From: Candidatus Omnitrophota bacterium
Lineage (GTDB): Bacteria > Omnitrophota > Gorgyraeia > Zapsychrales > Fredricksoniimonadaceae
Assembly (NCBI GenBank): GCA_015233335.1
Contig: JADFXX010000002.1
Coordinates: 128,891-192,890 of the forward strand
Length of the DNA: 64,000 nt
Reading direction: 5' to 3'
How positions within the stretch are numbered: the first letter of the stretch is position 1; every line of letters starts with the position of its first letter. The notes under the pieces were generated by a model, which worked only from the letters and a program-made list of their open reading frames with translations, made no database searches and had not been told where the DNA came from. A program made the position numbers and the translations under genes. Of this stretch, positions 12,338 through 53,354 are shown piece after piece.

Positions 12338-12413
12338 GGTTTTCCCTTTCACACATTATGATTTGAAATATTACCATATTGAATATTTCCTGTCTATGTT
12401 ATAATCTCAGGTT

Positions 12414-22932: not shown

Positions 22933-23379
22933 CTACTCTGTTGATACTGTCTTGGCTTTTTCAAGCGCTCCGTGCATGGCGTGCCAGCTTAAGGAAGCGC
23001 ATTTGACTCGCGCGGGATACTGCCAGATGCCGGAGAAAACAGTTAATTTTTCCAAGTGGTTAGGCTTCTCATCAGGTTTAAGCTCTCCGATAACGAGCTT
23101 ATGAAATTCTTCAAATAAAATTTGAGCCTCCTGCACACCTTTGCCCTTGAGACTTGTGGTCATCATCGAAGCTGATGCTTTGGAGATGGCGCATCCAGAA
23201 CCCTCAAAAGACGCATCCTCAATGACACCGCAGGAATCGACCTTCATATAGACCCACAAATGGTCCCCGCATAAAGGATTATACCCCTCAGCCGCATGCG
23301 TTGCTCCTTCGATTTTTCTAAAATTACGCGGATTACGGTTGTGCTCTAGGATCGTTTGCTGGTAAAGTTCATCACGCAT
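22933..23379 (-). CDS. sufU: SUF-type Fe-S cluster scaffold/sulfur acceptor (SufU/IscU-like)
   Basis: 148 aa. NPLCGD, GSGCAISKASASMM and CASLSW motifs. Follows sufS. Confidence 0.85.
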   Translation of the reverse strand: MRDELYQQTILEHNRNPRNFRKIEGATHAAEGYNPLCGDHLWVYMKVDSCGVIEDASFEGSGCAISKASASMMTTSLKGKGVQEAQILFEEFHKLVIGELKPDEKPNHLEKLTVFSGIWQYPARVKCASLSWHAMHGALEKAKTVSTE

Positions 23380-24595: not shown

Positions 24596-24599
24596 ATTC

Positions 24600-26641: not shown

Positions 26642-28122
26642 CAGCCCACACTCCCTTCTAATTTCATCTCCAATAATTTGACCGCCTCCACTGAAAACTC
26701 CAGAGGCAATTCTTTAAACACATCTTTACAAAAGCCGTTGATGATCAGAGAAACAGACTCTTCCAGATCTAAACCGCGTGAACGCAAATAAAACATCTGT
26801 TCTGCGTTGATCTTTGAGGTTGAGGCCTCATGCTCAACCACAGCCGTATTGTTTCTGACTTCGATATAAGGAAAAGTATTGGCAGAGCAATTATTTCCGA
26901 CTAACATGGAATCGCATTGAGAAAAATTACGCGCTCCGTCAGCAGAAGGCATAATTTTGACCAAACCCCGGTAGCTGTTATGCGCATGGTCCGAAGAAAT
27001 ACCTTTAGAGACAATCGTACTCTTGGTGTTCTTCCCAATATGGATCATCTTACTGCCCGTATCCGCATTCATGTAATGATTTGTCAGGGCTACGGAATAA
27101 AATTTGCCGACCGAGTTGTCCCCCTGTAAAATAACACTGGGATATTTCCAGGTAATCGCACTCCCCGCCTCCACCTGAGTCCAGGAGATCTGGGAATTAA
27201 CGCCCGCACATTTACCTCGCTTGGTGACAAAATTATAAATACCGCCACGTCCTTCCTTGTCACCGGAATACCAGTTCTGTACCGTTGAATATTTAATCTC
27301 GGCATGGTCTAAAGCCACAAGTTCAACGACAGCCGCGTGCAATTGATTAGTATCGCGCATGGGCGCCGTGCAGCCCTCCAGATAACTGACATAACTGCTC
27401 TCCTCAGCGATAACCAGGGTACGCTCAAACTGACCGGTATTTTCGGCATTAATACGAAAATATGTGGAAAGCTCTATCGGACAGCGAACCCCTTTTGGAA
27501 TAAAGCAAAAGGAACCGTCGGAAAACACCGCAGCATTCAATGAAGCAAAAAAATTATCCGTATAAGGAACTACAGAACCTAAGTATTTTTTAACCAAATC
27601 TGGATGTTTGATGACAGCTTCGGACATAGAGCAAAAAATAACACCATACTTGGCCAACTCCGATTGATGGGTTGTACCGACCGATATGCTGTCAAAGACC
27701 GCATCAACAGCAACTCCGGTCAGGCGCTTCTGCTCAGTCAATGGGATCCCCAAACGGTCAAATGTCTTCAGGAGCTCCTGATCCACCTCTTCTAAACTTG
27801 CAGGAGTAGCCTTTTTCGGTTTAGGAGCCGAATAATAATAAATATCCTGATAATCAATAGGCCCATATTCAAAATTAGGCCATGTTGGCTCCTTCATAGT
27901 TTGCCAATAACGAAATGCCTTCAGGCGCCATTCCAGCATCCACTCAGGTTCCTTTTTCTTGAAAGAAATAAGACGTACGGTGTCTTCATTAAGGCCTTTT
28001 GGCGGTTTATCTTCTTCGATATCCGTATGAAAACCATAACGGTAATCACCTGCGGCTAATTTGTTATCTTCCAGTTCTTTTTGTCGGACAATGTCTGCCA
28101 TATTTCCCTTATTCGCCTCCAT
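26641..28122 (-). CDS. sufB: Fe-S cluster assembly protein SufB
   Basis: The track starts at GTG 28137. The ATG at 28122 is preceded by GGGAGGG. The ATG at 28101 is an alternative. Conserved DAVFDS, YFRIN and [18 protein letters not shown] regions. Confidence 0.9.
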
Positions 28123-28165
28123 CCCTTGCCCTCCCACAATGGGGAAAGGAAAAAGAAGAGGAAAC

Positions 28166-28633
28166 TTACCCCTCCACTTTTGCTTCCTGAAAATTTTTAG
28201 AACGGATCTGTTTTTCGCCCTGATTTCGCGAACTGATCAGATCACGCACATTAATGGTCTTAAACAGCGCTGAAATTTTTTCGTTCAAATTAAGCATAGG
28301 TGAGATCACATTACAACTTGTGGTCATATCACAATGTGCATAATTACCGTGGAAACAATTAACAATCTGGATGGGGCCCTCGATGATCTGAGTTAATTCA
28401 TGAAGTGTAATCTTAGAGATGTCCTTAAGGATCTGGTAGCCCCCATGAGCCCCCTGCTCGGCGCGGACAATCTCATGTTGGGCCATGATCTGCAGCACAC
28501 GGGAAGTAGGATCAAAAGGCGTATGGTAAATATCACAGATTTCCTTGGCTGAGGTCAGCTGACCCGGCGATTTGGTACTCATGTGCCTTAGTGAAATCAG
28601 CGCATATTCTAACTTGCGGTTGATTTTAAACAT
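28166..28633 (-). CDS. Rrf2-family transcriptional regulator (IscR/SufR-like)
   Basis: 155 aa. N-terminal winged HTH ([12 protein letters not shown]). Three clustered Cys (C-x8-C-x6-C: [15 protein letters not shown]) consistent with Fe-S ligation. Immediately upstream of sufB. Confidence 0.8.
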
Positions 28634-38401: not shown

Positions 38402-38914
38402 TTAACCAGATTTAAAATACCCCTTGTAAAAATTCGATCCTGCGGTTCTTGATTCTTTTAATAAAATTTGACTCTTTTCATAAAAACTCACAGCCACATT
38501 TTTCCATCCTTGAGCCTGTTGAATGACGCCAGGAGTAAATTTAAAATAATTTTCCAGATCACGCACAGAAACATCTCTGACATTTTTACGTCGATTTTTA
38601 TTTTTAAATTTCTTGGCGTTATAAAAATTCCATCCGCGGATGAACAAATACATAACAAATACAGTGCCAACATAAATAAAGCTAAATCCTGCCAGAGCCT
38701 TAATGCCCCCCAAACGGATCATGTGTTCATAAAAGATCTCAAAACCAAGAAACCATAATAATGCCAGCAATAAAGGCCGGCATAAAACAGCCCAGATAAA
38801 CCAGCCAATGGCTATCATGCCCCATTCCATACCCCGACGCAACGGATTTAACGCATGTGGATGATAAATGATCAAATCTTCATCATTACTCTTTGAATCC
38901 TGTGGGTTATGCAT
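38402..38914 (-). CDS. pgaD: PNAG biosynthesis protein PgaD
   Basis: 170 aa with two N-terminal TM helices. Position directly after pgaC. Confidence 0.65.
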   Translation of the reverse strand: MHNPQDSKSNDEDLIIYHPHALNPLRRGMEWGMIAIGWFIWAVLCRPLLLALLWFLGFEIFYEHMIRLGGIKALAGFSFIYVGTVFVMYLFIRGWNFYNAKKFKNKNRRKNVRDVSVRDLENYFKFTPGVIQQAQGWKNVAVSFYEKSQILLKESRTAGSNFYKGYFKSG

Positions 38915-38924
38915 ATCTTAAGTT

Positions 38925-40148
38925 TTAAAATCCCCGGTCTGGGCTATCCCATACAGCAGGAGTCCCCCGTTTTTTCATCATCGCCAAAGGAAATCCAAAA
39001 ATAGTGACCGCTGCATTCAATATCCAATAAATAAGCGGATACCATATCAGCCAAAAATACATTTTATAGATTTTAGGCTCAAAGCGGCTGTCAATAATAA
39101 GCCCGATCGCCATCTGGACCAAACACGCAATTGCCAAAATAATACCGGTCCATCCTGGGACGATGCTGCGAACCATCATCGATGTTGGCAATTTTATCAA
39201 TAGCCCGATTAAATAAATACCATAAGTCATAAAAAGCATATAGGCCCAATAAATACTCACGCCATATTCTATATACAACAGCCAGATACGTCGCTGCTGC
39301 CAACTGAACATAGAATGAAAATATTTACGCAACACCTCACTGCCTCCTTGAGCCCAACGCAGGCGCTGATTCCACAAGCCTTTCATCGTTTCCGGCATAA
39401 GGATCCAGCATAACGCCCTTGGCTCATAACGGATATCCCAAAATTTAAGCTGTAATTTCCAACTGATATCGATATCCTCGGTGACCATGTCGGTACTCCA
39501 AAACCCCACGGAAAAAAGAGCACGCTTACGGAATGCCGCAATGACCCCTGATACCGTATAAACCTTTCCCAAAATACGCTGTGCACGCTTAATCATACCG
39601 ACGATTGAGGAAAATTCACCAACCTGAATTTTTCCCACAATGCTGGTACGGTTACGCACACGCGGGTTTCCGGTCACGGCCCCCACCCTTGGAAAATTCA
39701 AGAAATGCCACATAAAATATTGAATCGCACAGGGGTCAAGAAGAGCGTCTGCATCTATACAAATAAGATACTCCCCACGGGCAACCAAGGCCCCCATGGT
39801 CAAAGCCATGCCTTTACCTTGATTGGTCGCAAGCTCAACAATACGTAAACGGGAGTCCTGTGTCGAAAGTTCTCTTAAAATATTTAAGGTTTCATCCCTG
39901 GAACCATCGTCAATGACAATAATTTCATAATTAGGATATTCCTGTTTTCTTAAATAACTGATCGTGTCACGAATACACCGGGCCTCATTATGGCAGGGGA
40001 CCAAAATGGAGGCAAAAGGAAATTCGGAAAGCCGCATGTCACGATTCTTAGGCTCCCTTAAAACATGATAAATGATCCCTCCTATCATAAAAACAAAAGC
40101 CATGAACAAGGGATAATAGAAAACAAAATTGTAAATTACCTGCATCAT
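38925..40148 (-). CDS. pgaC: Poly-beta-1,6-N-acetyl-D-glucosamine synthase (GT2)
   Basis: 407 aa. Motifs VPCHNE, IDDGS, IDAD, TEDID and Q(R)RLRWAQGG. Flanking TM helices. Confidence 0.88.
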   Translation of the reverse strand: MMQVIYNFVFYYPLFMAFVFMIGGIIYHVLREPKNRDMRLSEFPFASILVPCHNEARCIRDTISYLRKQEYPNYEIIVIDDGSRDETLNILRELSTQDSRLRIVELATNQGKGMALTMGALVARGEYLICIDADALLDPCAIQYFMWHFLNFPRVGAVTGNPRVRNRTSIVGKIQVGEFSSIVGMIKRAQRILGKVYTVSGVIAAFRKRALFSVGFWSTDMVTEDIDISWKLQLKFWDIRYEPRALCWILMPETMKGLWNQRLRWAQGGSEVLRKYFHSMFSWQQRRIWLLYIEYGVSIYWAYMLFMTYGIYLIGLLIKLPTSMMVRSIVPGWTGIILAIACLVQMAIGLIIDSRFEPKIYKMYFWLIWYPLIYWILNAAVTIFGFPLAMMKKRGTPAVWDSPDRGF

Positions 40149-40156
40149 ATACTCAA

Positions 40157-42097
40157 TTAATGTCTATAAGGATAATCTTCGCTCGACATCATCTCACGGA
40201 TAACACTAGCTCGGGGGTGATCTTGAACAAAATCATCCGGATAGTACCCCACATGATGGGCCCCAAGAGCCACCAGCGCTCTTAACCAACCATTTAACAT
40301 TTCAGGTTTCAACCAGACTTTTTTGTGCCAGTCAAATGCCTGAATTTTAAAAATAGTTTTTTCTATTCCATGAGGATGGGTTCGGGCGGCATCAACTAAA
40401 TGTTTAAACCAGACTTTAAAATCCCCATGGATTTCTTCCAGATAGGGATAGACCATCACCACCGCATAATCATAAGAATCGAGGGTCTTCTGATAATTTT
40501 GGGCAAACCATTCCTCACTGTCGGGATCTAACAAAACAGGAGAATATAAATTACGGCAAAACAAAGCTTCCGGACGATAGTAACGGACTGCTTTTTTCAA
40601 ATACTCGGTCAGGTCGATCAATTGATCAGTTTTCCTCTGCATCCATTGATGGGCTTGTTGTTGGGTTAACTGCTGTGGATCTTTTATCCCCCTGCCTGTT
40701 ATCTTAAAATATTCTTTTAAGGCGTCCGGATGAAAATCTTCGAAATCCGTTAAATAACCGTCATCTTGAAAAAGAACCCCGTCAATCGCAGCATTGGAAG
40801 CCAGATCAGCGTATAACTGATAAAGTTTATCCCAAGCTTCCTGACTAAAGGGGGAAAGACGCTGATAAGATTCATCACTATCAACTATTTTGCCATGATC
40901 ATATTTCTTAACCCTAAGTGCTTGAGTTTTAGCTAAATCAGGCAAAATAATACTGCTCACTGGCATCCAAGCATAAACTTCAACCTGACAACGGGCAAAC
41001 AATTGATGAGCCACCCGGCTAAACAAGTCCATACGCATGGGCAAGACCTGATTAGGGAAATAGACAGATTTAACATTACCGGTGCCTTCTGGATCAGCAA
41101 ATGCCTGCAAAAAAACGGTCGTGACCTTCATGTCCTTAACACGATCCAAAACAGCACTTAAATTTCTCTCTATTTGCTGTGGATCCTTATCGAAAATCAT
41201 GTCTAAATCCAACTGCATGATACGCAAGTGCTCCGGGCCACCAGGCTTAATCCCTAAAAAAATCAGTAAAGAGCCGATATCAGGATTCTTAAAAAGCATG
41301 AACCGCTCAATAATGCTATCATGAGACACATCCACACGCCGGTCGTTTAAGGCAAAGGTGAGCTTAATCCCCGCCTGCTTCGCTGCTTCCTGGGTCAAAG
41401 CATTATACTTGCCATAGGGCCACGCGATAGACCGCACCTTTATATTTAATTTCTCCTCGAGCTCATTTTTGGACCGCAGAATATCATCGAAAACCCTCTC
41501 CTGATAGATCTTATCCTCTTCATAGGCATGAGTTGTAATATCAAATGAATGGGCGGTCGCTGCAGCATCAGCATTACCCTGAGGATTATAAACGATCACT
41601 TGATGGAGACTATGCGTGTGCGAGGCTATCTCCACCAACCCACTGTGGGCCACCTCTTTAAGCTGATCCCATGTCATGAGCTTTTGTCTAACCACTAACG
41701 GTTTTTTATCAAGCCATCCGGAAACAACAGCCAGCAGACTTGGAATCTTGTATTCTTTCAGAAGAGGGAAAACAAAATCGTAAAATGTGGCATAACCGTC
41801 ATCAAAGGTTAAAAGAACAGGTTTTGAAGGAAGCGCTTTAATCCCGGTCTGAGCCTGAATAAGATCATCCAAGCTGACAAAATGAAAATTATGCATTCGG
41901 AAATATTCAATAGTTTGAATAAAAGTCCCTTCATCCACCGCATAATTATCCAAATTTACATCTTTCGGAATATCGTGATAACACAAAACGATCAGATCAT
42001 TCTTGGGCTTGTCCCCTGCAGTAGACACATCAGGCAGACACCACGTCAGGACCATGCCTAGAATTATCACAGGTAGAATTTTAAAATTATGCCCCAC
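40157..42097 (-). CDS. pgaB: PNAG N-deacetylase PgaB
   Basis: 646 aa. N-terminal polysaccharide-deacetylase domain (LTFDDGY...HTHSLH) plus a C-terminal GH-like domain. Signal/lipoprotein-like N-terminus. Confidence 0.85.
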   Translation of the reverse strand: MGHNFKILPVIILGMVLTWCLPDVSTAGDKPKNDLIVLCYHDIPKDVNLDNYAVDEGTFIQTIEYFRMHNFHFVSLDDLIQAQTGIKALPSKPVLLTFDDGYATFYDFVFPLLKEYKIPSLLAVVSGWLDKKPLVVRQKLMTWDQLKEVAHSGLVEIASHTHSLHQVIVYNPQGNADAAATAHSFDITTHAYEEDKIYQERVFDDILRSKNELEEKLNIKVRSIAWPYGKYNALTQEAAKQAGIKLTFALNDRRVDVSHDSIIERFMLFKNPDIGSLLIFLGIKPGGPEHLRIMQLDLDMIFDKDPQQIERNLSAVLDRVKDMKVTTVFLQAFADPEGTGNVKSVYFPNQVLPMRMDLFSRVAHQLFARCQVEVYAWMPVSSIILPDLAKTQALRVKKYDHGKIVDSDESYQRLSPFSQEAWDKLYQLYADLASNAAIDGVLFQDDGYLTDFEDFHPDALKEYFKITGRGIKDPQQLTQQQAHQWMQRKTDQLIDLTEYLKKAVRYYRPEALFCRNLYSPVLLDPDSEEWFAQNYQKTLDSYDYAVVMVYPYLEEIHGDFKVWFKHLVDAARTHPHGIEKTIFKIQAFDWHKKVWLKPEMLNGWLRALVALGAHHVGYYPDDFVQDHPRASVIREMMSSEDYPYRH

Positions 42098-42111
42098 CAG
42101 TCACTCCCTAA

Positions 42112-44145
42112 TTAAAATTTTTGCCGGACCGTCCAGTAGGTATCAAGCACATTCATATGCTGGCCGGTGTAATACTCAAGTGAATACGTCAACCCTACCA
42201 AGAAACTTAGTGTATCTGAAGCCTTATACTCTACTTCTTCACGCAAATACCCCACATTTTTATCACTGATACTATATTCCCATTGCTGACCTAATCCTAT
42301 ATAAAAACGATCAGAAAACTGCTTTTCATAAAGCTTGTACCAAATATGTTCCACATTAGGGATCAAATAAAAATCATAAACTTTCTTGGGGCTATAATAA
42401 TCCACCGCCTGCTTGGAAAAAGTTCTGGCATCAAACTCTGTTCCTAAACGCCATCTCCAGTACGCAAAAGTCCGAATGGCTGAATCTGTCGTCCACTGAT
42501 AATTCCAATTCGCGTTGCCATCTTGAAAATTCTTCAAATCTGCTGATAAACCGGTATCAAACGATTCGTTAAGACGCAATAAACTGGATAAAGAATAATC
42601 CTGAACATTTTCACCTGGCGCACGGCTGACTAAAGGAATATCGATTGTTCGTGAATCATAATGAAAGGTATGTGTCCAATGATCATCAGGGGTAAATGCA
42701 ACCTCAGAAATACCCCCTATTCTCTGCCCGGTGTTATAATCTCCGGTCAGCGCCTCTGTTAATTTCCAGGCATTATCAGGACGGTAAATATCCCCTAGAT
42801 AAAAACGTTGTGTCAGATAATGTCCTCCCCCAGTTGAGATAAATTCGGTGTTTCGACGAATAAGCTCGAAAAATAATTGGTTATGATCGTTGATGCGCTC
42901 ATCCAGACGATTAGATAAATAAAATTCGTCATCGCCGATAATTTCATGTGTATAATAGCCGCTCATGGTCCACATGGCCATATCATCCACATCCATTTGA
43001 CGTTTGGCTTCAAGCACTTGGGGATCCCTGGGGTATTGTCCGCTCAAAGATTTCAGCATCAAGCGCCCTTGGGCCTGGTGCATATTGTCATAAAGCGCGC
43101 GCGCAAACCCGAGTTCTGCCGGAAGCAAGGAAGGGTCCATCGTGTGGATGATACGAAATTCCTCCAAAGCCCGACGCGGCCATCCACGCCATAAATAAAG
43201 ATGGGCCATAGCGGAAAGAATCTGGGTATCCATCGGAGCTGCGTTAAAATACTGATCCCCGATTTTCTGGGCTTTTTTCAAACGATCCTGATACATCAGA
43301 AGCCAAATTTTATTATAGGAGATCTCTTCCTTGTGGGGATTATCCCTCATGATGCCCCGTTCTTTGATTTGAACAGGTTCCAGGCGGTCCATGGATTCCA
43401 AAAGCTCACCGGCCTGCTGGTAACGTCCTAAATCAATGAAGGTATAATAAATGGCTATTTTGACATTAAAAGAATCCGGTTCACTTTTCAAAACAGATTG
43501 ATACAAACTCAAGGCCTTTTTAGGTTGCCATTTTGCAAGATAGGCATCCCCCGCAGCCTCTTTAATCCAAGAGGGTATTTCGATCTTCTCCTGAAGCGCT
43601 TTTTGATAATCTGCAACAATTTCATCAAACCTGTTCTTTTCCTTTAAAATCAAAATGTTGTCCCAACGCGAACGATTCTCTTCAACTCCAGCCGCCTGTA
43701 AATTAATATTGATCTTGTTGTCCCGGGCCCGCGCGTAATCCTCTTGTTGCTTTTCTTTCTTTAACTGAATCGCAGCAATAGCCTCTTGCGGTTCATCCCA
43801 ACGAATATACATCGCAGCCAAATTCCCGCGAGCCCGTTGACATAAAACAGGATCAGAGTAAGGATTTTGAATGGACAGCTCAAGTGCCAAAGAATTAGCA
43901 CCCAATTCCATCAATGCACGCATTTTTAAATTGAAAGCAGCTTGATTATTTGGATACTGCTTCAAGATATAATTGTAGACTTTAACTGCTGAGAAATAAT
44001 CTCTGTGGAATTCTAACATTTCAGCTTTTGACATCAGACTTTGATAAGAATCCGAACCTTGCACAGAGGAAGCAATCTGGCCTAAGGCCAAAGAGCTATT
44101 CAATAAAACCAGAAATGATACAAACAGCTGTAAATAAATCATCAA
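42112..44145 (-). CDS. pgaA: PNAG export porin PgaA (TPR plus beta-barrel)
   Basis: 677 aa. Signal peptide, an N-terminal TPR-rich half, an aromatic-rich beta-barrel half ending ...YWTVRQKF. First gene of the pga order. Confidence 0.8.
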   Translation of the reverse strand: MMIYLQLFVSFLVLLNSSLALGQIASSVQGSDSYQSLMSKAEMLEFHRDYFSAVKVYNYILKQYPNNQAAFNLKMRALMELGANSLALELSIQNPYSDPVLCQRARGNLAAMYIRWDEPQEAIAAIQLKKEKQQEDYARARDNKININLQAAGVEENRSRWDNILILKEKNRFDEIVADYQKALQEKIEIPSWIKEAAGDAYLAKWQPKKALSLYQSVLKSEPDSFNVKIAIYYTFIDLGRYQQAGELLESMDRLEPVQIKERGIMRDNPHKEEISYNKIWLLMYQDRLKKAQKIGDQYFNAAPMDTQILSAMAHLYLWRGWPRRALEEFRIIHTMDPSLLPAELGFARALYDNMHQAQGRLMLKSLSGQYPRDPQVLEAKRQMDVDDMAMWTMSGYYTHEIIGDDEFYLSNRLDERINDHNQLFFELIRRNTEFISTGGGHYLTQRFYLGDIYRPDNAWKLTEALTGDYNTGQRIGGISEVAFTPDDHWTHTFHYDSRTIDIPLVSRAPGENVQDYSLSSLLRLNESFDTGLSADLKNFQDGNANWNYQWTTDSAIRTFAYWRWRLGTEFDARTFSKQAVDYYSPKKVYDFYLIPNVEHIWYKLYEKQFSDRFYIGLGQQWEYSISDKNVGYLREEVEYKASDTLSFLVGLTYSLEYYTGQHMNVLDTYWTVRQKF

Positions 44146-44161: not shown

Positions 44162-44833
44162 CTAGATTCTATCTAATAAACGCAATAAACCGTCAAGCGT
44201 TGTCAAAGGATGTGGCGGGCAGCCCGGTATAAAAAGATCAACAGGGAGGATAGTATCAAGTCCTAAAGAAACTTGCGGGCCATCCCTGAATATCCCACCT
44301 GAAATTGCACACCCTCCCAAAGCAATCACAATCTTAGGTGAGGGCAGGGCTTCATAGGTTTTAAGGAGCGCCTCGCGCATATTTTTTGTGATCGGGCCAG
44401 TCACTACAATGCCATCAGCATGCCGGGGAGAAGCCACAAACTGGATACCAAATCGTGAGAGATCAAAAACCGGAGTATTTAAAACATTTAAATCCAGCTC
44501 GCAGGCATTACAGCCTCCGGCTGAGACTTGTCTCAGCTTAAGCGAGCGGCCAAATATTTTAAGCATTTTATCCTCTAAAGCAGAGGCCAACACCTTTTCA
44601 CGGCCTGAAGACAAAATCAAGTCTTCTCGACCAGATGTGGACATTTGATAATCATTAGAAAAACTAAAACCGCTATCCGGATCAAAAGAAATTCTTCCCA
44701 TATCGACAATGTCATTTTGTCCTGCAATAATCGGGCGCCCGCGATAGCGCTCAGGCAACGCCGGCGCAGGAGCCTTAGGAAAAAATATGGTCTTGCAACC
44801 TTGTTTAAAACGTGCTTTAAGGATTTTTAACAT
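44162..44833 (-). CDS. NuoB/HycG-like small subunit with a NuoI-like cluster-less N-terminal extension (Ehr-type S subunit)
   Basis: 223 aa. [4Fe-4S] ligand pattern GGCNAC...GGCAISGG...IPGCPPHP. The N-terminal 90 aa carry LPERYRGRP and EDLILSSGREK segments but no CxxCxxCxxxCP motif. Confidence 0.8.
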   Translation of the reverse strand: MLKILKARFKQGCKTIFFPKAPAPALPERYRGRPIIAGQNDIVDMGRISFDPDSGFSFSNDYQMSTSGREDLILSSGREKVLASALEDKMLKIFGRSLKLRQVSAGGCNACELDLNVLNTPVFDLSRFGIQFVASPRHADGIVVTGPITKNMREALLKTYEALPSPKIVIALGGCAISGGIFRDGPQVSLGLDTILPVDLFIPGCPPHPLTTLDGLLRLLDRI

Positions 44834-44850: not shown

Positions 44851-46362
44851 CTATAAATCATGCCCACAATAGGACAAATTGAAACTTTTATTACACAAAG
44901 GAAAATCAGAAATTTCCTGACCTCGCATGGCATAGGCCAGCCCAAACCAGTTATGAAATGAGGGATCTTTGATCTTATAACGTCCAAAGCCGCCTTGGTT
45001 ATCGCTAATACCAACATGCATGATCTCTCCTCGCCAGCCTTCAACCATAGACACCGCCACCGTATCTGGTTTCATTGGCCCCGGAGCCACAAAAATATCT
45101 CCTGCTGGCAAAGAAGGTAAAACCCGTAGCAAAAATTCCAAGGACCTTAGGACCTCCTGACTTCGCACTAAAGCTCTAGCATAGACATCCCCGGTCGCCC
45201 CTAAAGAAATCGGCACATGTTGAAACTGCCACATCCCTGAAGCATAATTGATCCTGACATCACATTCCATCTGACTGGCACGTCCGGCAGGTCCTACCAG
45301 CCCAATCTCTTTAGCATCCTTAGGAGAAACGATCCCCACCCCTTCAAAGCGCGCTAATACTGACGGTCTGGTAAATAAAAGATCACTGACATCTTTAAAT
45401 TCATCCCTATATTTTTTTAACTTAAGACAAAAATCATTGGCCATTTTGTTATCAATATCGAATAAAACTCCCCCTGGCCGGCATAACCCCTTACCGAAAC
45501 GATTACCAGTTAAAATCAAAAGCAGATTTAAATAATCCCCCCGCATACGTCCAAAATAAGCACTCGTAGGTAAAAACCCAGCATCCATGCCAAGCGCGCC
45601 TAAATCTCCAACATGATTAGCTAATCTCTCCAGCTCTAAAGCAATGGCCCGGATCGCCTGGGCTCGAGGTGTAATACTACACCCTGTTAAGGATTCAACC
45701 ACTTCAGAAAAAGCCGTGGAATGTCCGATAGATGTGTCACCGACAATCGATTCGCTTAAAAGCATGCTTCGCCTTAAATCCTGCCCCTGCATCATCGGTT
45801 CAATACCCCGATGTTGATAGCCTAATTGGATTTCCAAATGCAGGATCTCCTCTCCGTGACATTGAAAACGGAAATGCCCGGGCTCGATGATCCCCGCATG
45901 AACCGGTCCTACCCCAATTTCATGGACCTCTTCCCCTTCCACAGCGTAAAATGGATATCCTCCCGGGATTATTTTGTCGTTAATACCCTGCCAAATATCC
46001 TCTGCCTGACGATAGTTGGAATGGTATCTTAATGGCTTAAGCCATGGGTGCCCCACGGGTTTGACGGCCCACTGTTCTGCAATCTCGCGCTCAAATAAAT
46101 GCGCTTGCGTAAGATCTTTTGTTAAAGATTCATATTGAGGGGATTCTAAACTAATAAAAGTCGATAAAATGTCAAGTCTGGCCTCTTCGTCTACCCCAAG
46201 AACAGCCAATAAACGCAGGTATCCGTTTGTCTCCAAAATCCCGAACAAATTCACCAGACGGGAAGACTCACCGCAAGATTCAATGATCTGCGCTCGGAAT
46301 TTTTCAACAACTAAGACCGGAATATTCGATAAAGATATTTTTCCACCATTAAAAAGTGCCAT
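44851..46362 (-). CDS. Fused NuoC + NuoD/HycE-like large subunit lacking NiFe-binding cysteines (Ehr-type L subunit)
   Basis: 503 aa. NuoC-like FEREIAEQWAVKPVGHP, then GPVHAGIIEPGHFRF. The L1 site reads ESIVGDTSIGHS instead of ERxCGICxxxHS. The C-terminus reads NLSYCGHDL instead of DPCxxCxxR. Confidence 0.8.
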   Translation of the reverse strand: MALFNGGKISLSNIPVLVVEKFRAQIIESCGESSRLVNLFGILETNGYLRLLAVLGVDEEARLDILSTFISLESPQYESLTKDLTQAHLFEREIAEQWAVKPVGHPWLKPLRYHSNYRQAEDIWQGINDKIIPGGYPFYAVEGEEVHEIGVGPVHAGIIEPGHFRFQCHGEEILHLEIQLGYQHRGIEPMMQGQDLRRSMLLSESIVGDTSIGHSTAFSEVVESLTGCSITPRAQAIRAIALELERLANHVGDLGALGMDAGFLPTSAYFGRMRGDYLNLLLILTGNRFGKGLCRPGGVLFDIDNKMANDFCLKLKKYRDEFKDVSDLLFTRPSVLARFEGVGIVSPKDAKEIGLVGPAGRASQMECDVRINYASGMWQFQHVPISLGATGDVYARALVRSQEVLRSLEFLLRVLPSLPAGDIFVAPGPMKPDTVAVSMVEGWRGEIMHVGISDNQGGFGRYKIKDPSFHNWFGLAYAMRGQEISDFPLCNKSFNLSYCGHDL

Positions 46363-46367: not shown

Positions 46368-47780
46368 TTAAACAGCTCCGATTAATTTGACTGCATTGTT
46401 GATCATTTTCTCAAGCCCGATCGGCATCCATAACCCGAGACCAACCAACAGCACGACAGCAAGTAGAATAGCCGCATTCATAGACGTGTTCTCTTTCTTT
46501 GCAAGAAGCGGTTCACGGGGCTTGCCATGAACAACCCCAAGAACAATTTTGGCGACTCCGATAAACATGACACCCAAACAAACAACACCCCCTGCGGCCA
46601 GACAATAATGCCTTGACGTGATCGCCGCATTAAGTATCAAAAGTTCACTATGAAATGTCGCAAAAGGAAACATGCCAGTTCCCGCCAAAAAGGCCGCGAC
46701 CAGTAAAATACCTGTCAACGGATAAATATGAATAATACCCTTAACTTCATCCGCTCTACTGGAACCATATTTCTGGGCAATAGAACCCGCCGTCAAGAAC
46801 ATGACGGACTTGGCCAAAGCATTATTGATCATATGAAACAACGCCCCAAATAAACCAACAGCACCCAGCCCAAGACCTAAAACCAAAAGACCCATATTTT
46901 CGATAGAAGAGTACGCAAATGCCCTTTTAATACTCTTTTCTCCTAAAATAAACAAGGCCGGGACTAGCAGTGATAACATCCCTGAAACAATCAGAATGGA
47001 AGAATAAAATTCTGTTAAACCTGCTTTGTTACAAACCTGAGCGATACGAAGCAAAGCCAAAAAAGAACATTGAGTCAATGCCCCAGCCATAATAACTCCA
47101 ACCATTCCTGTCGCCTGCCCATAAGCATCAGGTTTCCAACTATGGGTTGGAGCCAATCCCATTTTGCAACCATAACCAACGATAAAGAAAATGATGCTAA
47201 GCTTCATCCAATTCAAAGATAATGAAGATGATCCTTTTAAAATAGCCGGAAGCAAAAGAGTGTGCACATCGTGGGCCGCAATAGCAAGAAAAAATGTGCC
47301 CATCAATCCTAAAGCGATACCAACAGAACAAACCAGCAAATACCGCCATGTTGCCTGAAGACTTTGCTGATTGCGGTGATAACTGATCAAAGGCGCGCTA
47401 AACAAGGTCGTAGCTTCAATCGACACCCACAAAAGGCCAAAATGATAACTAACGGCAACCAGCGTCATCGTTGAAAGCAAACATAATAGACATACTGTTA
47501 AAAGACGATTGCTTCGAGGCTCATGCTTGAAATAACCAATCATAAAAACAGATACTGACAAAAAGAGGAAACTGACTATCGACAGCAGGATCAAACCCAA
47601 AGGATCAAGCACTAAAAAGCCGTTAAACTCAACCGGAGGCCTCTGCATCCAGAATAAAGCAACAATCAGTCCATGACAAAAAGAAACAGCTATGAACAGC
47701 TTAAGAATAAACTTCTTGCTCACTGGCAAAAAAATGCCCAGAGCGCTTATAAACGGCAATAAGATCAAAAGAGTCAACAT
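46368..47780 (-). CDS. NuoN/NuoM/Mrp-type antiporter-like membrane subunit
   Basis: 470 aa polytopic protein. GYGCKMGLAPTHSWKPDAYGQA matches the proton-pumping subunit signature. Confidence 0.8.
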   Translation of the reverse strand: MLTLLILLPFISALGIFLPVSKKFILKLFIAVSFCHGLIVALFWMQRPPVEFNGFLVLDPLGLILLSIVSFLFLSVSVFMIGYFKHEPRSNRLLTVCLLCLLSTMTLVAVSYHFGLLWVSIEATTLFSAPLISYHRNQQSLQATWRYLLVCSVGIALGLMGTFFLAIAAHDVHTLLLPAILKGSSSLSLNWMKLSIIFFIVGYGCKMGLAPTHSWKPDAYGQATGMVGVIMAGALTQCSFLALLRIAQVCNKAGLTEFYSSILIVSGMLSLLVPALFILGEKSIKRAFAYSSIENMGLLVLGLGLGAVGLFGALFHMINNALAKSVMFLTAGSIAQKYGSSRADEVKGIIHIYPLTGILLVAAFLAGTGMFPFATFHSELLILNAAITSRHYCLAAGGVVCLGVMFIGVAKIVLGVVHGKPREPLLAKKENTSMNAAILLAVVLLVGLGLWMPIGLEKMINNAVKLIGAV

Positions 47781-47793: not shown

Positions 47794-48447
47794 TTAAAAC
47801 GTTTCCCCCATCTTCGAGAACGTTACCGAAGCCGGGTTTTTCTCAAACTCTTCATTAATATGATTGACCACAATGGCCATGATAAATACAGCCACGAAAA
47901 TATCCAGAAGAATGCCCATTTCGATCAAGACCGGCATCACGTCAAATAATGACACCGCAAAAAGAAAAATTCCGTTTTCCATGATCAAATACCCCAGCAC
48001 TTGGGTGACCGCCCGGGTGCGGGTAACCATGATCATAAACCCTAAAAGCACCGTCGAAAGGGAGCATGGCAAGATAAGATCCGAAGCGGGCTTCCCCGGA
48101 AGCTTTAGGGATAACGAGACCCAAAAGGCCCCGGCAATGATCATCGCTCCTAAAATAATGGACGCTGATAATCCTATAATAGGCTTGACTTCCGAACGCA
48201 TGGACACATGCCGAATGGCCCAAAATAAAATAGAAGGTACCAGAACCGCCTTAAGGACCATTGTGACAACCCCTAAAATGACGTCACGGTTTGAAATACA
48301 GAAAGCATGCAAGAAAAACGGCAATAGCCCCAGGACAAAAGACTGAATGGCAAAAATCCGAATCATGGCAGCAACACGATAATTGGACAATATAATAAGA
48401 GATAAAAATACCACCGTAATACAGATGACATCAACCCAGCTTGTCAT
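47794..48447 (-). CDS. HyfE/NuoK-like small membrane subunit
   Basis: 217 aa, about 7 TM helices. Size and position match hydrogenase-4 component E-like subunits. Confidence 0.6.
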   Translation of the reverse strand: MTSWVDVICITVVFLSLIILSNYRVAAMIRIFAIQSFVLGLLPFFLHAFCISNRDVILGVVTMVLKAVLVPSILFWAIRHVSMRSEVKPIIGLSASIILGAMIIAGAFWVSLSLKLPGKPASDLILPCSLSTVLLGFMIMVTRTRAVTQVLGYLIMENGIFLFAVSLFDVMPVLIEMGILLDIFVAVFIMAIVVNHINEEFEKNPASVTFSKMGETF

Positions 48448-48454: not shown

Positions 48455-49366
48455 TTATCCTTTCCACATTTTTACAACAAACCCAAAAAAACCTAAAGCA
48501 AAAGCAATCAAAAGCAAATGATTGACCCTGTTAAGCCGTAAACGTGCCGTGGTTGATTCTACTATGCCAACAGCTATAGATACAGCCAGCATCCCCCCTA
48601 AAAATATCAGCATATCCATAACCTTATTGACCGGCTCAATTGGTAGAATAATAGGGATCAGGATTCCGGCAAAAACAAATAACTTTATAGCTGAAGCATA
48701 AAGCAAGAATCCCAGATCGACCCCGCTATGGTCCAAAATTTTGACTTCATGGATCATGGTCAACTCCAAATGAGTATCAGGATCATCAATGGGAATACGC
48801 GCATTTTCGGCCAGAATTAAAATAAAAAAACTGCCTACCACTAAAATAAGCACTGTCCCCCAAAGCTTCCAAGACAGAGGAAGATTACCCCCGATCATGG
48901 AGGATAAAGAAATGCTGTGCTGGGCAAGAGAAAGCGTAATAAAATTCATGAACAAGATCATTTCACAAAGACACGAAAAGAAAGCCTCACGGCTGGCCCC
49001 CATACCTTCAAAACTATAGCCCGTATCCAGAGCCGCTATGATCATAAAAAACCTGGCTAGCCCTAAAATAGAAGCCGCCAAGAAAATGTCACCTGTAAAT
49101 TGAAGGGGCGCTTTAAATGGCCCTAGAGGAACAAGCAGAGCTAACAACAATACAGCGGCGAGGCAAATAATAGGTACGGCACGAAAAACCCATGTAGTCG
49201 TCCTGCTATAAACAGAATCCTTTTGAAAAAGCCTTTGCAGATCAAAAAAAGGTTGAAACAATGAGGGCCCTTTTTTACCTGCAAAAAACGCCTTAACCTT
49301 AGCGATAACACCCACAAACAAAGGTGCCAGTAAAAACACTATGATCCAGTGAGAAAAAATTAACAT
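48455..49366 (-). CDS. NuoH/HycD-like membrane subunit
   Basis: 303 aa. The AENARIPIDDPDTHLELTMIHE loop corresponds to the conserved E..R.PFD..E.E.EL loop of NuoH/HycD. Confidence 0.75.
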   Translation of the reverse strand: MLIFSHWIIVFLLAPLFVGVIAKVKAFFAGKKGPSLFQPFFDLQRLFQKDSVYSRTTTWVFRAVPIICLAAVLLLALLVPLGPFKAPLQFTGDIFLAASILGLARFFMIIAALDTGYSFEGMGASREAFFSCLCEMILFMNFITLSLAQHSISLSSMIGGNLPLSWKLWGTVLILVVGSFFILILAENARIPIDDPDTHLELTMIHEVKILDHSGVDLGFLLYASAIKLFVFAGILIPIILPIEPVNKVMDMLIFLGGMLAVSIAVGIVESTTARLRLNRVNHLLLIAFALGFFGFVVKMWKG

Positions 49367-49370: not shown

Positions 49371-51191
49371 TTATTTTAATTTCCAAACCAATAAGATTAT
49401 CAAATATAAGAAAATGTACATCAGATACATCTGTGTATACCGAATACGGCTGATATCCAATTTCCTTGATAAATTCGTCAATTTGCCGAATACTGGCTTA
49501 AACAAAAATTCTTCAAAGAAATCGCTGACCGATGAAGACATGGATGCCGATTGAGGGAAAAAGCCTTTAACCTGGGGAAATGTCCGTTTATAAAATAAAA
49601 TTCTCTTAAAAAAATCTAGAATAAGCCGTGCAAAAGAAGAAGAGGTGTATTGCATCCGAGGTGTCACATAAGAAAAACCACAACGCCAAGTTTCACTGAC
49701 AGATGCAGGCAAAGCCTTTAAAAATAATACGCGTAAATAAGTCAAAATTAGCACTAACGCAAGAAAAAGAACAACACCACCGATCATACAGGTTAGCGGT
49801 GAAAAAATATTATCCATGGGAAGCTCTAAAAGATCGGCATGGGACAAAAAAGCCCCCCCCAAAAAAGCTATGCCTGCCGCTGTTCTTGGGAAAAGACCGA
49901 TCCATAAACAAAATCCTGCCAAAACGATCATAGGGATACACATCCATAATGAAATTCTTTCCCCCAGCTGCGATCCTTTTGGCACGCGAGGTTCACCTAA
50001 GAATACTGTACCGTAAACCTTGGAAAAACAAGCTAGTGCAAGCGTTCCCATAAGGGCCAGTGCAATAATCCCCAAAGCACAGACAAATGTCCCCTGTAAA
50101 GGCAGATGAAAAATACCCTGAAAAAGGCCAAAATAAATAATAAACTCACTAATAAACCCGTTAAATAACGGTAATCCGCAGATGGCCAATGCCCCTATAA
50201 GAAATAAAATACTGACAAGCGGCATGACCTTGGCCATCCCTCCCATACGGTCCATCTCACCTGTGTGTGTTTTTTGAATAACAGCACCTGCAGCCAAAAA
50301 CAAAAGTCCTTTAAAAATGGCATGGTTAAAAACATGTAAGAGTGCACCACCAAACCCAAGCACAGCTAAAAAAGGCATACGATGACTCTCTCCCAGCAAC
50401 CCAACACCCAATCCAAGCGCAACAATCCCAATATTCTCGATACTATGATACGCTAAAAGTCTTTTAAGCTCATGCTGTCCTAAGGCATATAAAACCCCCA
50501 TCACTCCGCACAGAACGCCTATGATCAATAGCAAATATCCACACCAATCCGGAAGGACACCGATCATCCACAACACACGGCAGATACCGTAAATACCCAT
50601 TTTGATCATAACGCCGGATAAAACTGCCGATACGTGGCTCGGAGCTGCCGGATGCGCATGAGGCAGCCAAATATGGAGTGGAATAAAACCTGCCTTAACC
50701 CCAAAACCAAAAATAGCTAGAAGAAATATAACACCCGCAAGAACCGGCGGGAAAGGAGCATGACTGATGATGTCAAAATTCATGGACCCGCTGTTAGAGG
50801 CCATTAAAAAGAACATTATGATAAGAAGAAAAGTCCCACAGTGGGAAGCGATCAAATAAAGGAAACCGGCCCGGCGTACGTCAGACTCCTCATCCTTGAA
50901 AACAACCAAAAAAAATGCTGAAACCGACATTATTTCCCATGCGCCTAGAAAAAGAATCACATTATTAGCCAGAACAATCACTATAAGAGCCAGTGACAAA
51001 ACCAAATAAAAGAAGATATGAAGCCCCACAGGCCTCTTGGAGGCGTACGGACGCATATAACCGACAGCGTAAATGCCTGCACACAAGATTAAAATTATGA
51101 CCGCAACCAAAAAAATAAAACTCAACGGGTCAAATTTAAGCGAAAACTCCCCGAAGGGAACATGCCATGAGGATTGAAAATATTTTTCCAT
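49371..51191 (-). CDS. NuoL/HyfB-like antiporter-like membrane subunit
   Basis: 606 aa. IPLHIWLPHAHPAAPSHVSAVLSGVMIKMGIYG signature. Confidence 0.8.
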   Translation of the reverse strand: MEKYFQSSWHVPFGEFSLKFDPLSFIFLVAVIILILCAGIYAVGYMRPYASKRPVGLHIFFYLVLSLALIVIVLANNVILFLGAWEIMSVSAFFLVVFKDEESDVRRAGFLYLIASHCGTFLLIIMFFLMASNSGSMNFDIISHAPFPPVLAGVIFLLAIFGFGVKAGFIPLHIWLPHAHPAAPSHVSAVLSGVMIKMGIYGICRVLWMIGVLPDWCGYLLLIIGVLCGVMGVLYALGQHELKRLLAYHSIENIGIVALGLGVGLLGESHRMPFLAVLGFGGALLHVFNHAIFKGLLFLAAGAVIQKTHTGEMDRMGGMAKVMPLVSILFLIGALAICGLPLFNGFISEFIIYFGLFQGIFHLPLQGTFVCALGIIALALMGTLALACFSKVYGTVFLGEPRVPKGSQLGERISLWMCIPMIVLAGFCLWIGLFPRTAAGIAFLGGAFLSHADLLELPMDNIFSPLTCMIGGVVLFLALVLILTYLRVLFLKALPASVSETWRCGFSYVTPRMQYTSSSFARLILDFFKRILFYKRTFPQVKGFFPQSASMSSSVSDFFEEFLFKPVFGKLTNLSRKLDISRIRYTQMYLMYIFLYLIILLVWKLK

Positions 51192-51874
51192 TATGAAATT
51201 TTTGCGACCTTTGATTCCGCTACTTGAAATGCTGCCAGGATCTCCTCACTCTGGATCCGGCGCTGTAAAGCTGATTTAACTTCCTGATCCTGCAGACAAA
51301 ATGCGAGGCGTGACAGCAAAGATAAATGCCATTTGAATGATGAAGATAAAATAACAAATAACGTATGCACGCCTTCACCGTCTGGTGAAGAAAAATCAAC
51401 GGCCTTTTCTAGGAAAAAAAGCCCGACAATGGGTTCCATTCCCGCCAGTACCACCGGATGTTTAACATGCGGAATCGCAATCCCATTGCCAATGCCTGTC
51501 GTTCCCGCCTGCTCACGAGACAGCAACATCTCTTTTAAAGATGATTTCCGGATATGATCAGGCAGGACCAAAAGATCTAAAACTCTTCCTAAGATTTCTT
51601 CTCGATGATGACCAGTGAGGCCAAAATAGACTCCGCCACGCATGAGTGCCGGAGTAATAAGATCCTGCCCCTGACGGGCTTTTTCGCAAAGTTTCAATGC
51701 ACCGGCTGTAAGACATATTCGATTTTTTAAAGCCCATTCCAGGACTTCAACCGAATTAAAATAATACTGATCATTGGCCTTGATCGCAGGCATCCCCTGC
51801 TTATTAAGCCATTGATAAAGCTTCTCCTCAGGGATCCCAAACGCCTTTTCTATGTCACGGAAAGTCAGCTGCAT
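51191..51874 (-). CDS. HTH (excisionase/MerR-like) + PTS EIIA type-2 (EIIA-Ntr-like) domain protein
   Basis: 227 aa. N-terminal LTFRDIEKAFGIPEEKLYQWLNKQGMPA HTH. C-terminal GTTGIGNGIAIPHVKHP phosphorylatable-His motif. Its stop overlaps the next gene's ATG (TAATG). Confidence 0.75.
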   Translation of the reverse strand: MQLTFRDIEKAFGIPEEKLYQWLNKQGMPAIKANDQYYFNSVEVLEWALKNRICLTAGALKLCEKARQGQDLITPALMRGGVYFGLTGHHREEILGRVLDLLVLPDHIRKSSLKEMLLSREQAGTTGIGNGIAIPHVKHPVVLAGMEPIVGLFFLEKAVDFSSPDGEGVHTLFVILSSSFKWHLSLLSRLAFCLQDQEVKSALQRRIQSEEILAAFQVAESKVAKIS

Positions 51875-53289
51875 ACAATGCTTTGAGCAACCCCTGTTTG
51901 ATGCGCTGCCCCTTCAACGGCTTTGGTCACAGCTTCAACCACACGTTTATCAAAAATACTGGGAACAATGTATTCACTGCTCAGCTGGGTCGGCAAAATA
52001 AGATTGGCTATCGCGTCAGAAGCGGCAATTTTCATAGCCTCATTAATTTGTTTGGCACGTACATTCAAGGCCCCTCTGAATATACCGGGAAAAGCTAAAG
52101 CATTGTTAATTTGATTAGGAAAATCTGAACGGCCGGTCGCAAAAACCCGACAAACTTTGAAAGCCTGATGAGGATCAATCTCCGGATCAGGATTGGCCAT
52201 GGCAAATACAATACGATCTTTTTTCATCACCTTGAGATCTTCCTTGGATAAAATGTTCCCAGCTGAAACTCCGATGAAAACATCCGCTCCCCGCAAAGCT
52301 TCCCGTAAAGTTAAAACGGGATCATTGGGGGAAGCGCATGAAAACAAGTCCTGACGTGCACGGTCCAAATTAGCGCCATTGGCGATCAGAACAACTCCCT
52401 TGCGATTACAAGCCAGCAAATTCGAAACTCCTGCGGCCAATAGGATCCGGCAACAAGCCGCTCCCGCCGCCCCCAATCCATTCACGACAACGTGAACCCG
52501 TTTAATATCTTTTTTAACAACTTTCAATGCGTTTTTTAAGGCCGCCAATATAACGACCGCAGTCCCATGCTGGTCGTCATGCATCACCGGTATAGATAAA
52601 ATCTTTTTAAGCCTCTCTTCAATTTCAAAACAACGCGGAGCGCTGATATCTTCCAAATTAATACCGCCGAATGCCGGGGCGATATTCTGGACCGTCTTGA
52701 CAATTTCGTCAACATTCTGAGTGGCCAAACAAATAGGCCAGGCATCTATATTGGCAAACTCCTTAAAGATCATGGCCTTGCCTTCCATGACAGGCAAGGC
52801 AGCCTCAGGCCCCAAATTCCCTAATCCCAGAATAGCAGACCCGTCTGTCACGATAGCAACGCTATTGGCTTTGATAGTCAATTTATAAACCTCTTCTGGG
52901 TTTTTAGCAATCACTTGAGAAACTTTTGCAACTCCGGGGGTATACGCCATGGAAAGCTGATTACGTGTTTGCAGGGGGGTTTTATTATGAACCTGTATCT
53001 TCCCCCCTAAATGAAGCAGTAATACCCGATCAGATATCGCAATGATCCTGACATTTTTCAATTTTCCTAGACCTTTAAGGATCTTTTCGGCATCTTTTTC
53101 CCGGGCCACGTCAAAGGTTACATCACGAATGATTTTGGTGGCCGTAACATCGACGATGTCCACTGCTCCCAGTCCCGCTTTAGCAGAGGCGATCAATGCG
53201 GCGACAGACGCAAAAACACCCGGCCGATTTACAAGCTCCAGACGAATAGTCACTTTATTATTGGATGAAAAATTGCTTTCATTGTCCAT
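51865..53289 (-). CDS. NAD(P)-dependent malic enzyme with an N-terminal ACT domain
   Basis: Trimmed to the ATG preceded by GGGAGAG (MDNESNF...). ACT-like region, then AYTPGVA, GLGNLGP, MHDDQHGTA and GLGAAG motifs. Confidence 0.85.
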   Translation of the reverse strand: MDNESNFSSNNKVTIRLELVNRPGVFASVAALIASAKAGLGAVDIVDVTATKIIRDVTFDVAREKDAEKILKGLGKLKNVRIIAISDRVLLLHLGGKIQVHNKTPLQTRNQLSMAYTPGVAKVSQVIAKNPEEVYKLTIKANSVAIVTDGSAILGLGNLGPEAALPVMEGKAMIFKEFANIDAWPICLATQNVDEIVKTVQNIAPAFGGINLEDISAPRCFEIEERLKKILSIPVMHDDQHGTAVVILAALKNALKVVKKDIKRVHVVVNGLGAAGAACCRILLAAGVSNLLACNRKGVVLIANGANLDRARQDLFSCASPNDPVLTLREALRGADVFIGVSAGNILSKEDLKVMKKDRIVFAMANPDPEIDPHQAFKVCRVFATGRSDFPNQINNALAFPGIFRGALNVRAKQINEAMKIAASDAIANLILPTQLSSEYIVPSIFDKRVVEAVTKAVEGAAHQTGVAQSIVCS

Positions 53290-53354
53290 ATTTTTCGACT
53301 CTCCCTTCAGGGAAAATTTAACCCCCATCCGCTAATGTGTCCTTTAGCATGACA

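Follow-up and report, generated by a model that had tools for sequence, protein, structure and literature searches.

The small subunit (EhrS) of an Ehr complex (Ech- or energy-converting hydrogenase-related complex) encoded by Candidatus Omnitrophota bacterium almost certainly consists of a vestigial NuoI/HycF (TYKY-type) subunit, amino acids (aa) 1-76, fused to a NuoB/HycG-type small subunit. The gene lies in a stretch of 64,000 nucleotides (contig JADFXX010000002.1, positions 128,891 to 192,890; hereafter the window), and its sequence indicates that the complex is left with one [4Fe-4S] cluster, the equivalent of N2, and with no relay. Comparison across the Ehr family further indicates that losses have followed a recurrent series, starting with the distal cluster and going on to the proximal one, and that this cluster-free EhrS stands at its end. 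The remnant is probably kept as a structural strap. We put the probability of this explanation as a whole at about 0.8. Under it, a conserved and selected lineage discarded the NuoI relay and kept the NuoB cluster together with the remaining machine, and its relatives show the intermediate steps. A complex with one cluster and no electron wire narrows the possible functions of the uncharacterised Ehr. The parts of the subunit are as follows.

44162..44833, minus strand: EhrS, the Ehr small subunit, an open reading frame of 223 aa, read as a NuoB/HycG-type core preceded by a fused, vestigial NuoI/HycF module
44720..44833, minus strand: NuoI/HycF N-terminal segment, aa 1-38, with a predicted helix at 2-13 followed by a loop containing FPxxxxxLPxRYRGRP
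44705..44719, minus strand: scar QNDIV, aa 39-43, the deletion site of the first Cys motif and a strand (hhalign gap, MAFFT series)
44669..44704, minus strand: strand and remnant of the second Cys motif, aa 44-55 (DMGRISFDPDSG; hhalign and MAFFT series)
44606..44668, minus strand: NuoI/HycF segment that follows the second cluster, aa 56-76 (FSFSNDYQMSTSGREDLILSS; FSFSNDYQMSTSGREDLIL)
44555..44605, minus strand: linker helix from the NuoI remnant to the NuoB core, aa 77-93, whose motif LAxALxxxMxxL is common to intact fused EhrS
44165..44554, minus strand: NuoB/PSST/HycG-type core, aa 94-223 (Pfam, NCBIfam and PDB matches)
44510-44512 (C108), 44501-44503 (C111), 44309-44311 (C175) and 44219-44221 (C205), minus strand: predicted N2-type [4Fe-4S] ligands

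An earlier note on this DNA had drawn attention to two stretches of the N-terminal extension, FFPKAPAPALPERYRGRPII and SGREDLILSSGREK, as resembling E. coli NuoI before and after its ferredoxin domain. Re-translation of the reading frame recovered aa 1-90 from 44564-44833 exactly as quoted there, and the proposed resemblance is borne out by significant profile matches of residues 1-93 (hhalign). The first 38 residues align one to one with HycF 1-37, with NuoI 15-50 and with EhrS proteins whose ferredoxin domain is intact; in the NCBIfam models, aa 1-39 fall on positions 1-38 of HycF and aa 1-43 on positions 1-42 of HyfH. The scar at aa 39-43 faces a 23-column gap against intact EhrS (hhalign) and is the least conserved stretch of the protein, with a majority-residue frequency of 0.41 among 56 homologues, compared with 0.81 for aa 1-38 and 0.74 for aa 56-76. 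Residues 44-55 correspond to 'DLGRCLFCxxCxxxCPxGA', with every Cys replaced and seven residues gone, although the strand into cluster 2 survives as 'VDMGRISF' (from 'IDLGRCLFC'), and D44 and G46 are invariant among the 56 homologues. Residues 56-76 make up the 'IxFSxDYRLAxxRREDLIV' segment and align with NuoI 110-137 and HycF 86-108, and the NCBIfam NuoI model matches aa 52-88. Because the cluster-1 block is deleted and the cluster-2 motif lacks all its Cys and seven residues, binding of N6a- or N6b-type [4Fe-4S] clusters by EhrS is impossible. To judge from these alignments, what survives of NuoI is the N-terminal helix-plus-loop (PxRYRGRP), a short strand that formerly led into cluster 2 and the post-ferredoxin segment. 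The architecture proposed in the earlier note, a NuoI clamp fused to NuoB with N6a and N6b gone and the N2-type cluster kept, therefore agrees with the alignments, except that the ferredoxin core was not cleanly excised.

Homology of the extension to NuoI and HycF is detected at several levels of sensitivity. In pairwise BLAST comparisons, E. coli NuoI and HycF each match the extension in two weak, collinear segments, and EhrS and NuoI have in common the 'PxRYRGR' loop and a 'TPDFEM...DL' segment. When the single extension sequence was searched against 18,950 NCBIfam models, only NuoI, HycF-type and HyfH models matched, in the correct register, with weak NuoI/HycF matches (E = 0.03-0.07). A Pfam scan of aa 1-90 returned no meaningful match; the parts of NuoI outside its ferredoxin domain are not covered by any Pfam model. 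A profile of the extension built from 46 Omnitrophota sequences matched only NuoI and HycF among all PDB sequences, in two collinear stretches each. The same profile found 254 matches among 1.84 billion representative proteins, most of which align their own N-terminus with the first 35-45 residues of the extension and the region after an intact 2x[4Fe-4S] domain with its later part; many run on into 'FGRSLKLRQVSAGGCNACE', the NuoB core, and Cys-degenerate intermediates are also present. Profile-profile comparison (hhalign) with the N-domains of intact fused EhrS gave a probability of 100 per cent (E = 1.9e-39; aa 1-92 on 1-121), and its gaps of 23 and 7 columns coincide exactly with the two Cys motifs. 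Against stand-alone HycF the profile gave a probability of 94.9 per cent (E = 4.3e-8), and the intact EhrS N-domain aligned with HycF at E = 4.8e-31; aa 1-104 of the Geomonas EhrS matched the HycF-type and NuoI models of NCBIfam at 3.8e-21 and 8.5e-20, respectively. The family-specific N-terminal helix and loop (PxRF/YRG) and the post-ferredoxin segment are thus detectable in EhrS by profile comparison.

These results leave next to no chance that the extension is an unrelated, lineage-specific tail with a fortuitous likeness to NuoI, or that the short EhrS is an assembly artefact or a decaying pseudogene. The lack of a Pfam domain in aa 1-90 and the weak single-sequence matches would fit such an origin, but the profile-profile E-values, the collinear two-segment alignments and the restriction of PDB and NCBIfam matches to the NuoI family speak against it. 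So do more than 110 homologues from independent metagenomes (67-83 per cent identity), to all of which the short architecture is common; one NCBI entry, from a 'Candidatus Omnitrophica bacterium' metagenome-assembled genome and annotated as NuoB, is 100 per cent identical to EhrS. In pairwise comparisons of short-form genes, the proportion of synonymous differences (pS) is about 0.75-0.9, which is saturated, while the proportion of non-synonymous differences (pN) ranges from 0.17 to 0.39 in the extension and from 0.12 to 0.22 in the core; because synonymous sites are saturated, pN is reported against pS in place of a dN/dS ratio of rates. Non-synonymous change is therefore constrained, and an assembly artefact or pseudogene was rejected on these grounds. 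As far as such comparisons can indicate, the short-form EhrS is real and under selection.

The NuoB-type core, by comparison, is complete. Pfam Oxidored_q6 covers aa 108-218 alone (E = 5.6e-30), and the best PDB matches of the core are MbhJ (5.7e-37) and HycG (1.2e-35). The cysteines of the EhrS motifs GGCNACE (CxxC), GGCA (GxC) and PGCPP are in register with those of both proteins, which upholds the earlier claim that the core keeps its four cluster ligands. All four are invariant among the 56 homologues, and the ligand set is CCCC in 81 of the 82 complete EhrS compared; the exception (locus L042) has CCCS in an unverified alignment. The N2-type site is hence intact in sequence, and cluster binding itself is predicted. 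EhrS has cysteines at positions 13, 108, 111, 175 and 205 and at no others, so that C13 is the sole Cys of the extension, as had been stated; at its position, intact homologues have H or Y.

That the complex is an Ehr, as the earlier note had assumed, follows from its large subunit, EhrL, which lacks either [NiFe] motif. In alignment, HycE 'RVCGICGFAH' corresponds to EhrL 'SIVGDTSIGH' and HycE 'DPCYSCTDR' to EhrL 'NLSYCGHDL', so the L1 and L2 Ni-Fe cysteine motifs by which group 4 [NiFe] hydrogenases are recognised are missing; both CxxC motifs are likewise absent in the Geomonas EhrL and in six other EhrL sequences. The quinone-site Tyr of NuoD aligns with Gly in EhrL. All EhrL compared have 'GDT[ST][IV][GA]H' in place of the first hydrogenase CxxC, and their C-terminus, 'ISDFPLCNKSFNLSYCGHDL', is nearly invariant. 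The conserved Asp, His and Cys of EhrL could form a different metal or active site.

The fusion of NuoI and NuoB is not itself new. It has been described for Ehr small subunits in Supplementary Note 4 of PMC6349859, which cites Marreiros 2013, and the occurrence of the fusion in other EhrS, raised as a question in the earlier note, is thus the normal, published state of the subunit; the special part is the loss of clusters. We found no description of a cluster-free EhrS in the literature searched, a scope that did not take in Marreiros 2013 and Coppi 2005, and this form appears to be undescribed. The function of Ehr is called unknown or conjectural (PMC10284858, PMC6349859). Canonical Ehr (Geobacter ehrA-D, L, S; Riflemargulisbacteria Ehr, PMC6349859) has the same operon order as the window, including a gene with a helix-turn-helix (HTH) and an EIIA domain. 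Canonical EhrS is, like the window EhrS, a single-gene NuoI-NuoB fusion, is 49-57 per cent identical to it over the whole protein and is accompanied by a large subunit that also lacks the [NiFe] cysteines. The usual EhrS N-domain, however, has eight Cys for two [4Fe-4S] clusters, whereas that of the window has none of the eight and is about 30 residues shorter; the window EhrS is therefore a variant member of Ehr and not its standard form.

Better-characterised relatives place the variant in context. The extension aligns with residues 1-108 of HycF outside the cluster motifs, but in E. coli formate hydrogenlyase (FHL; 7z0s) HycF and HycG are separate polypeptides, and HycF binds clusters F1 and F2 and a C-terminal metal site and docks HycB/FdhF, whereas the window EhrS has no ferredoxin-type clusters. 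In FHL, as in the Pyrococcus membrane-bound hydrogenase (MBH; MbhN and MbhJ, 6cfw), the partner large subunit is a true [NiFe] hydrogenase, which EhrL is not. Complex I (NuoI, i.e. TYKY/Nqo9, and NuoB, i.e. PSST/Nqo6) and NDH-1 (NdhI and NdhK) keep the N2-type cluster, as does EhrS, but they also have N6a and N6b, which are essential to their wire and both missing from the window EhrS; in addition, the ligand pair is CC in NuoB and CxxC in EhrS, and EhrL lacks the quinone-site Tyr of NuoD. Mrp-type cation/proton antiporters resemble Ehr in their NuoL/M/N-like and related membrane subunits and have no electron relay; they also lack a NuoB/NuoD-like peripheral module and any Fe-S cluster, whereas Ehr keeps both peripheral subunits as its most conserved parts. 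In the complex I superfamily, all characterised members with a peripheral arm (complex I, NDH-1, Fpo, Ech, FHL, MBH, MBS) have, to our knowledge, two NuoI-type clusters before the NuoB cluster.

We then compared 80 Ehr loci from species-representative genomes (given by L numbers), scoring the ligand columns in aligned EhrS. The long form, with all eight Cys, dominates, and occurs in Planctomycetota, Verrucomicrobiota, Desulfobacterota/Geobacter, Acidobacteriota, Spirochaetota, Chlamydiota, Riflebacteria and others. Among the species representatives, the short form is found in L003-L007 and, in a more divergent version, in L008 and L010; the seven comprise five titled Omnitrophota and two, L004 and L007, that were deposited as 'uncultured Planctomycetales'. 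In the window, L003-L007, L008 and L010, none of the eight ligand columns holds a Cys; each is either a gap or another residue. Between these extremes lies a one-cluster state, in which four cysteines have gone and those left are the CP cysteine of motif 1 and the CxxCxxC of motif 2.

One-cluster forms: L023/L024, L048/L061, L052/L068, L040, L082, P0195
Zero-cluster forms: the window, L003-L007, L008/L010, and the metagenomic P0182/P0139 type

The cluster kept in the one-cluster forms is the equivalent of N6b, judging from the ferredoxin ligation rule and from the residues listed around N6b in E. coli NuoI (around 48, C74 and L116), which fit an N6b bound by motif 2 and the CP cysteine of motif 1. 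Electrons pass from N6a to N6b to N2 (PMC6616624). On a neighbour-joining tree of the EhrS core, which carries no support values, the N6a-type cluster was lost with the N6b-type kept in at least five clades and the reverse pattern never occurs; both were lost in at least two clades, plus a lineage of 70 per cent GC with the same operon. In this last, unrelated lineage, a metagenome contig of 70.5 per cent GC (L083, 10001-10798) encodes an EhrS whose pseudo-ferredoxin domain, 'DVGACLFSPEESGCTP', has its full length but few Cys; the Cys-poor P0182/P0391 type lies on a 70 per cent GC contig with the same Ehr operon, including the HTH-EIIA gene. Cluster loss is consequently not confined to Omnitrophota, and the L083 lineage is, by its sequence, a second route to the loss of the relay, through substitution without deletion.

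The operon as a whole is canonical for Ehr: tightly packed on the minus strand, in the order HTH-EIIA, EhrA, B, C, D, L and S, with EhrS last. The genes preceding EhrS are listed from its end outwards.

44851..46362, minus strand: EhrL, NuoCD/HycE-like large subunit (Pfam Complex1_49kDa and Complex1_30kDa), without [NiFe] cysteines
46368..47780, minus strand: EhrD, NuoN/HyfF-like antiporter-type subunit (Pfam Proton_antipo_M; gene order kept in related loci)
47794..48447, minus strand: EhrC, HyfE-like membrane subunit (weak Oxidored_q2 match; operon position conserved)
48455..49366, minus strand: EhrB, NuoH/HycD-like (Pfam NADHdh, 7.1e-30)
49371..51191, minus strand: EhrA, NuoL/HyfB-like antiporter-type subunit (Pfam Proton_antipo_M, 1.7e-53)
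51191..51874, minus strand: HTH_17 and phosphotransferase system (PTS) EIIA-2 (PtsN-like) protein (Pfam and NCBIfam), first gene of the operon, overlapping the EhrA start

Gene order is identical in L003-L006, L009, L034, L082 and L083, and of the subunits that the operon encodes, EhrL and EhrS are conserved best. Of 53 Ehr loci from many phyla, 39 carry the HTH-EIIA gene upstream of EhrA and on its strand, as does L083; the conservation of this gene with Ehr suggests a conserved regulatory link between signalling of the nitrogen-related PTS (PTS-Ntr) type and Ehr. Its homologues are found at the following positions.

L003 2840-3523: HTH-EIIA homologue
L034 468-1145: HTH-EIIA homologue
L082 2728-3411: HTH-EIIA homologue
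L083 788-1495: HTH-EIIA homologue

Why would a remnant without clusters be retained? In every structure solved within the complex I superfamily, the N-terminal helix and long loop of HycF are present, lie at the membrane surface and bind lipid (PMC9474812), and residues 23-38 of E. coli NuoI, which align with about aa 8-23 of EhrS, become ordered only once the peripheral arm joins the membrane arm (PMC8357420). On the strength of these two analogies, the remnant probably serves as a strap, which would fasten the NuoB/NuoD-like module to the NuoH-like membrane subunit and keep it at the lipid surface, as in complex I and FHL. The EhrS remnant would in that case mark off the structural from the electronic parts of NuoI, which is relevant to the assembly, lipid and interface roles of TYKY-type subunits. 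For the remaining cluster, we give not quite even odds to direct reduction by a donor: a soluble protein such as ferredoxin would dock at the former place of the ferredoxin domain and reduce the single EhrS cluster, a 'shortened wire' that would complete the passage from two clusters through one to none seen across Ehr. In favour of this proposal, the N2-type ligands are retained almost universally, and EhrL and EhrS are highly conserved. Long-form Ehr also seems to end its wire at its own N-domain, which fits a soluble donor, as in NDH-1; in photosynthetic NDH-1, soluble ferredoxin feeds the chain directly at its first cluster.

Several observations weigh against the explanation as we have framed it. 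The AlphaFold2 model of the whole subunit (from the 56-sequence alignment) has predicted local distance difference test (pLDDT) scores below 50 over aa 7-49 and 60-76, and was therefore set aside for fold searches and for positioning the strap; it predicts a helix at 78-94, in the linker region, and the helix at aa 2-13 with low pLDDT. This N-terminal helix is basic (+4), but its hydrophobic moment of 0.39 is no better than that of shuffled sequences (HycF, 0.64), and so we do not claim that it is amphipathic. The loss counts depend on the unsupported tree described above. At the acceptor side, EhrL has neither [NiFe] cysteines nor the quinone-site Tyr. The exposure and redox activity of the remaining cluster, as well as the identity of its donor, are ones that we infer, and an equally valid reading of the recurrent relay loss is that Ehr does not need electron input. 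Finally, a separate NuoI-like gene was not found in the window or in the flanks of the short-form loci, the rest of the genome not having been searched.

The natural series of two, one and no clusters thus poses the question of direct reduction of a single cluster versus dispensable electron input. If input is dispensable, which we can advance only tentatively, the N2-type cluster would be a structural or a redox- or O2-sensing cofactor of the NuoB fold, and the Omnitrophota Ehr a redox-independent or redox-gated ion translocator or antiporter, in practice an Mrp-like machine that retains a cap at its periphery and may be under the control of the PtsN-like protein. Despite repeated loss of the relay, the six-gene operon is intact and conserved, and EhrL has lost both the [NiFe] site and the quinone-site Tyr. 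No redox partner genes occur near short- or long-form operons, and a ferredoxin motif occurs within about 10 kb in only 7 of the 80 loci, both forms taken together. The neighbours of the short-form operons are transporters (SulP/STAS, CLC, H+-pyrophosphatase, major facilitator superfamily [MFS]), and the PTS-EIIA-type regulator is conserved with the operon. Against dispensable input, the four N2-type Cys are kept in all EhrS except that of L042, with its unverified CCCS, while the other eight have been lost many times; moreover, conservation is highest in EhrL and the EhrS core, which fits an active site better than a cap, although structural clusters can also be conserved and the point is indecisive. 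We regard it as unlikely that Ehr is independent of a cytoplasmic electron wire altogether and that the Omnitrophota form reveals the core activity of the family; the corresponding picture of an ion- or solute-translocating machine, with the NuoB/NuoD-like module as a sensor or non-redox catalytic head under PTS-Ntr-type (EIIA) control, is unlikely to the same degree. If true, it would place a wire-free Ehr functionally between Mrp antiporters and the redox-driven pumps of the complex I superfamily.

That the relay comes in trans, from a NuoI/HycF-like 2x[4Fe-4S] protein whose gene lies elsewhere in the genome, is highly improbable. Of the genome, only 64 kb were read, and anaerobes are rich in ferredoxin-like proteins; but no CxxCxxCxxxC motif is present in EhrS or in the six frames of the window, which also confirms that the two NuoI-like stretches have no CxxCxxCxxxCP between them, and no ferredoxin motif lies within about 10 kb of any of the seven related short-form loci (L003-L008, L010). 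The separate NuoI-like gene that the earlier note had named as evidence against its own proposal was accordingly not encountered there. Moreover, the retained N- and C-terminal segments of NuoI would already fill the canonical NuoI docking site, and the 70 per cent GC lineage has kept a full-length, Cys-poor pseudo-ferredoxin domain, which argues that this position is filled in cis. Direct reduction of the one EhrS cluster by a soluble donor, with the remnant as a strap, remains the reading that we favour.

The genes around the short-form operons encode transporters or unrelated proteins (SulP/STAS, CLC, H+-pyrophosphatase, MFS, a histidine kinase, and pgaABCD in the window). A SulP/STAS permease is found upstream in three short-form loci; downstream there is a CLC channel, an H+-pyrophosphatase or an MFS gene, the last beginning 2 nucleotides after EhrS in L008 and L010.

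L003 737-2401 and 10609-12051: transporter neighbours
L005 306-1949: transporter neighbour
L006 1319-2968 and 10798-13218: transporter neighbours
L008 3968-5287: transporter neighbour
L010 5354-6673: transporter neighbour

In L004, a second, divergent EhrA-B-C-D set (10743-15710; 45-52 per cent identity) immediately follows EhrS; neither the large nor the small subunit is duplicated. Two neighbours of the operon in the window were considered as parts of the system and rejected.

38402-44145, minus strand: pgaABCD-like exopolysaccharide cluster (PgaA barrel/TPR, deacetylase, glycosyltransferase, PgaD-like)
51865-53328, minus strand: ACT-domain malic enzyme-like gene (from translation), overlapping the start of the HTH-EIIA gene

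The pgaABCD-like cluster begins 16 nucleotides past the EhrS stop, with no terminator-like site between them, but the downstream genes differ in every related locus. Apart from the window, a malic enzyme homologue accompanies Ehr in L004 alone, and there on the opposite strand. Elsewhere in the window, a suf cluster (SufS, SufD, SufC, SufB and an Rrf2 regulator) and rubrerythrin (23372-28633 and 62244-62861, minus strand) indicate that Fe-S biogenesis and oxidative-stress functions are encoded nearby; efflux and biosynthetic genes are present as well.

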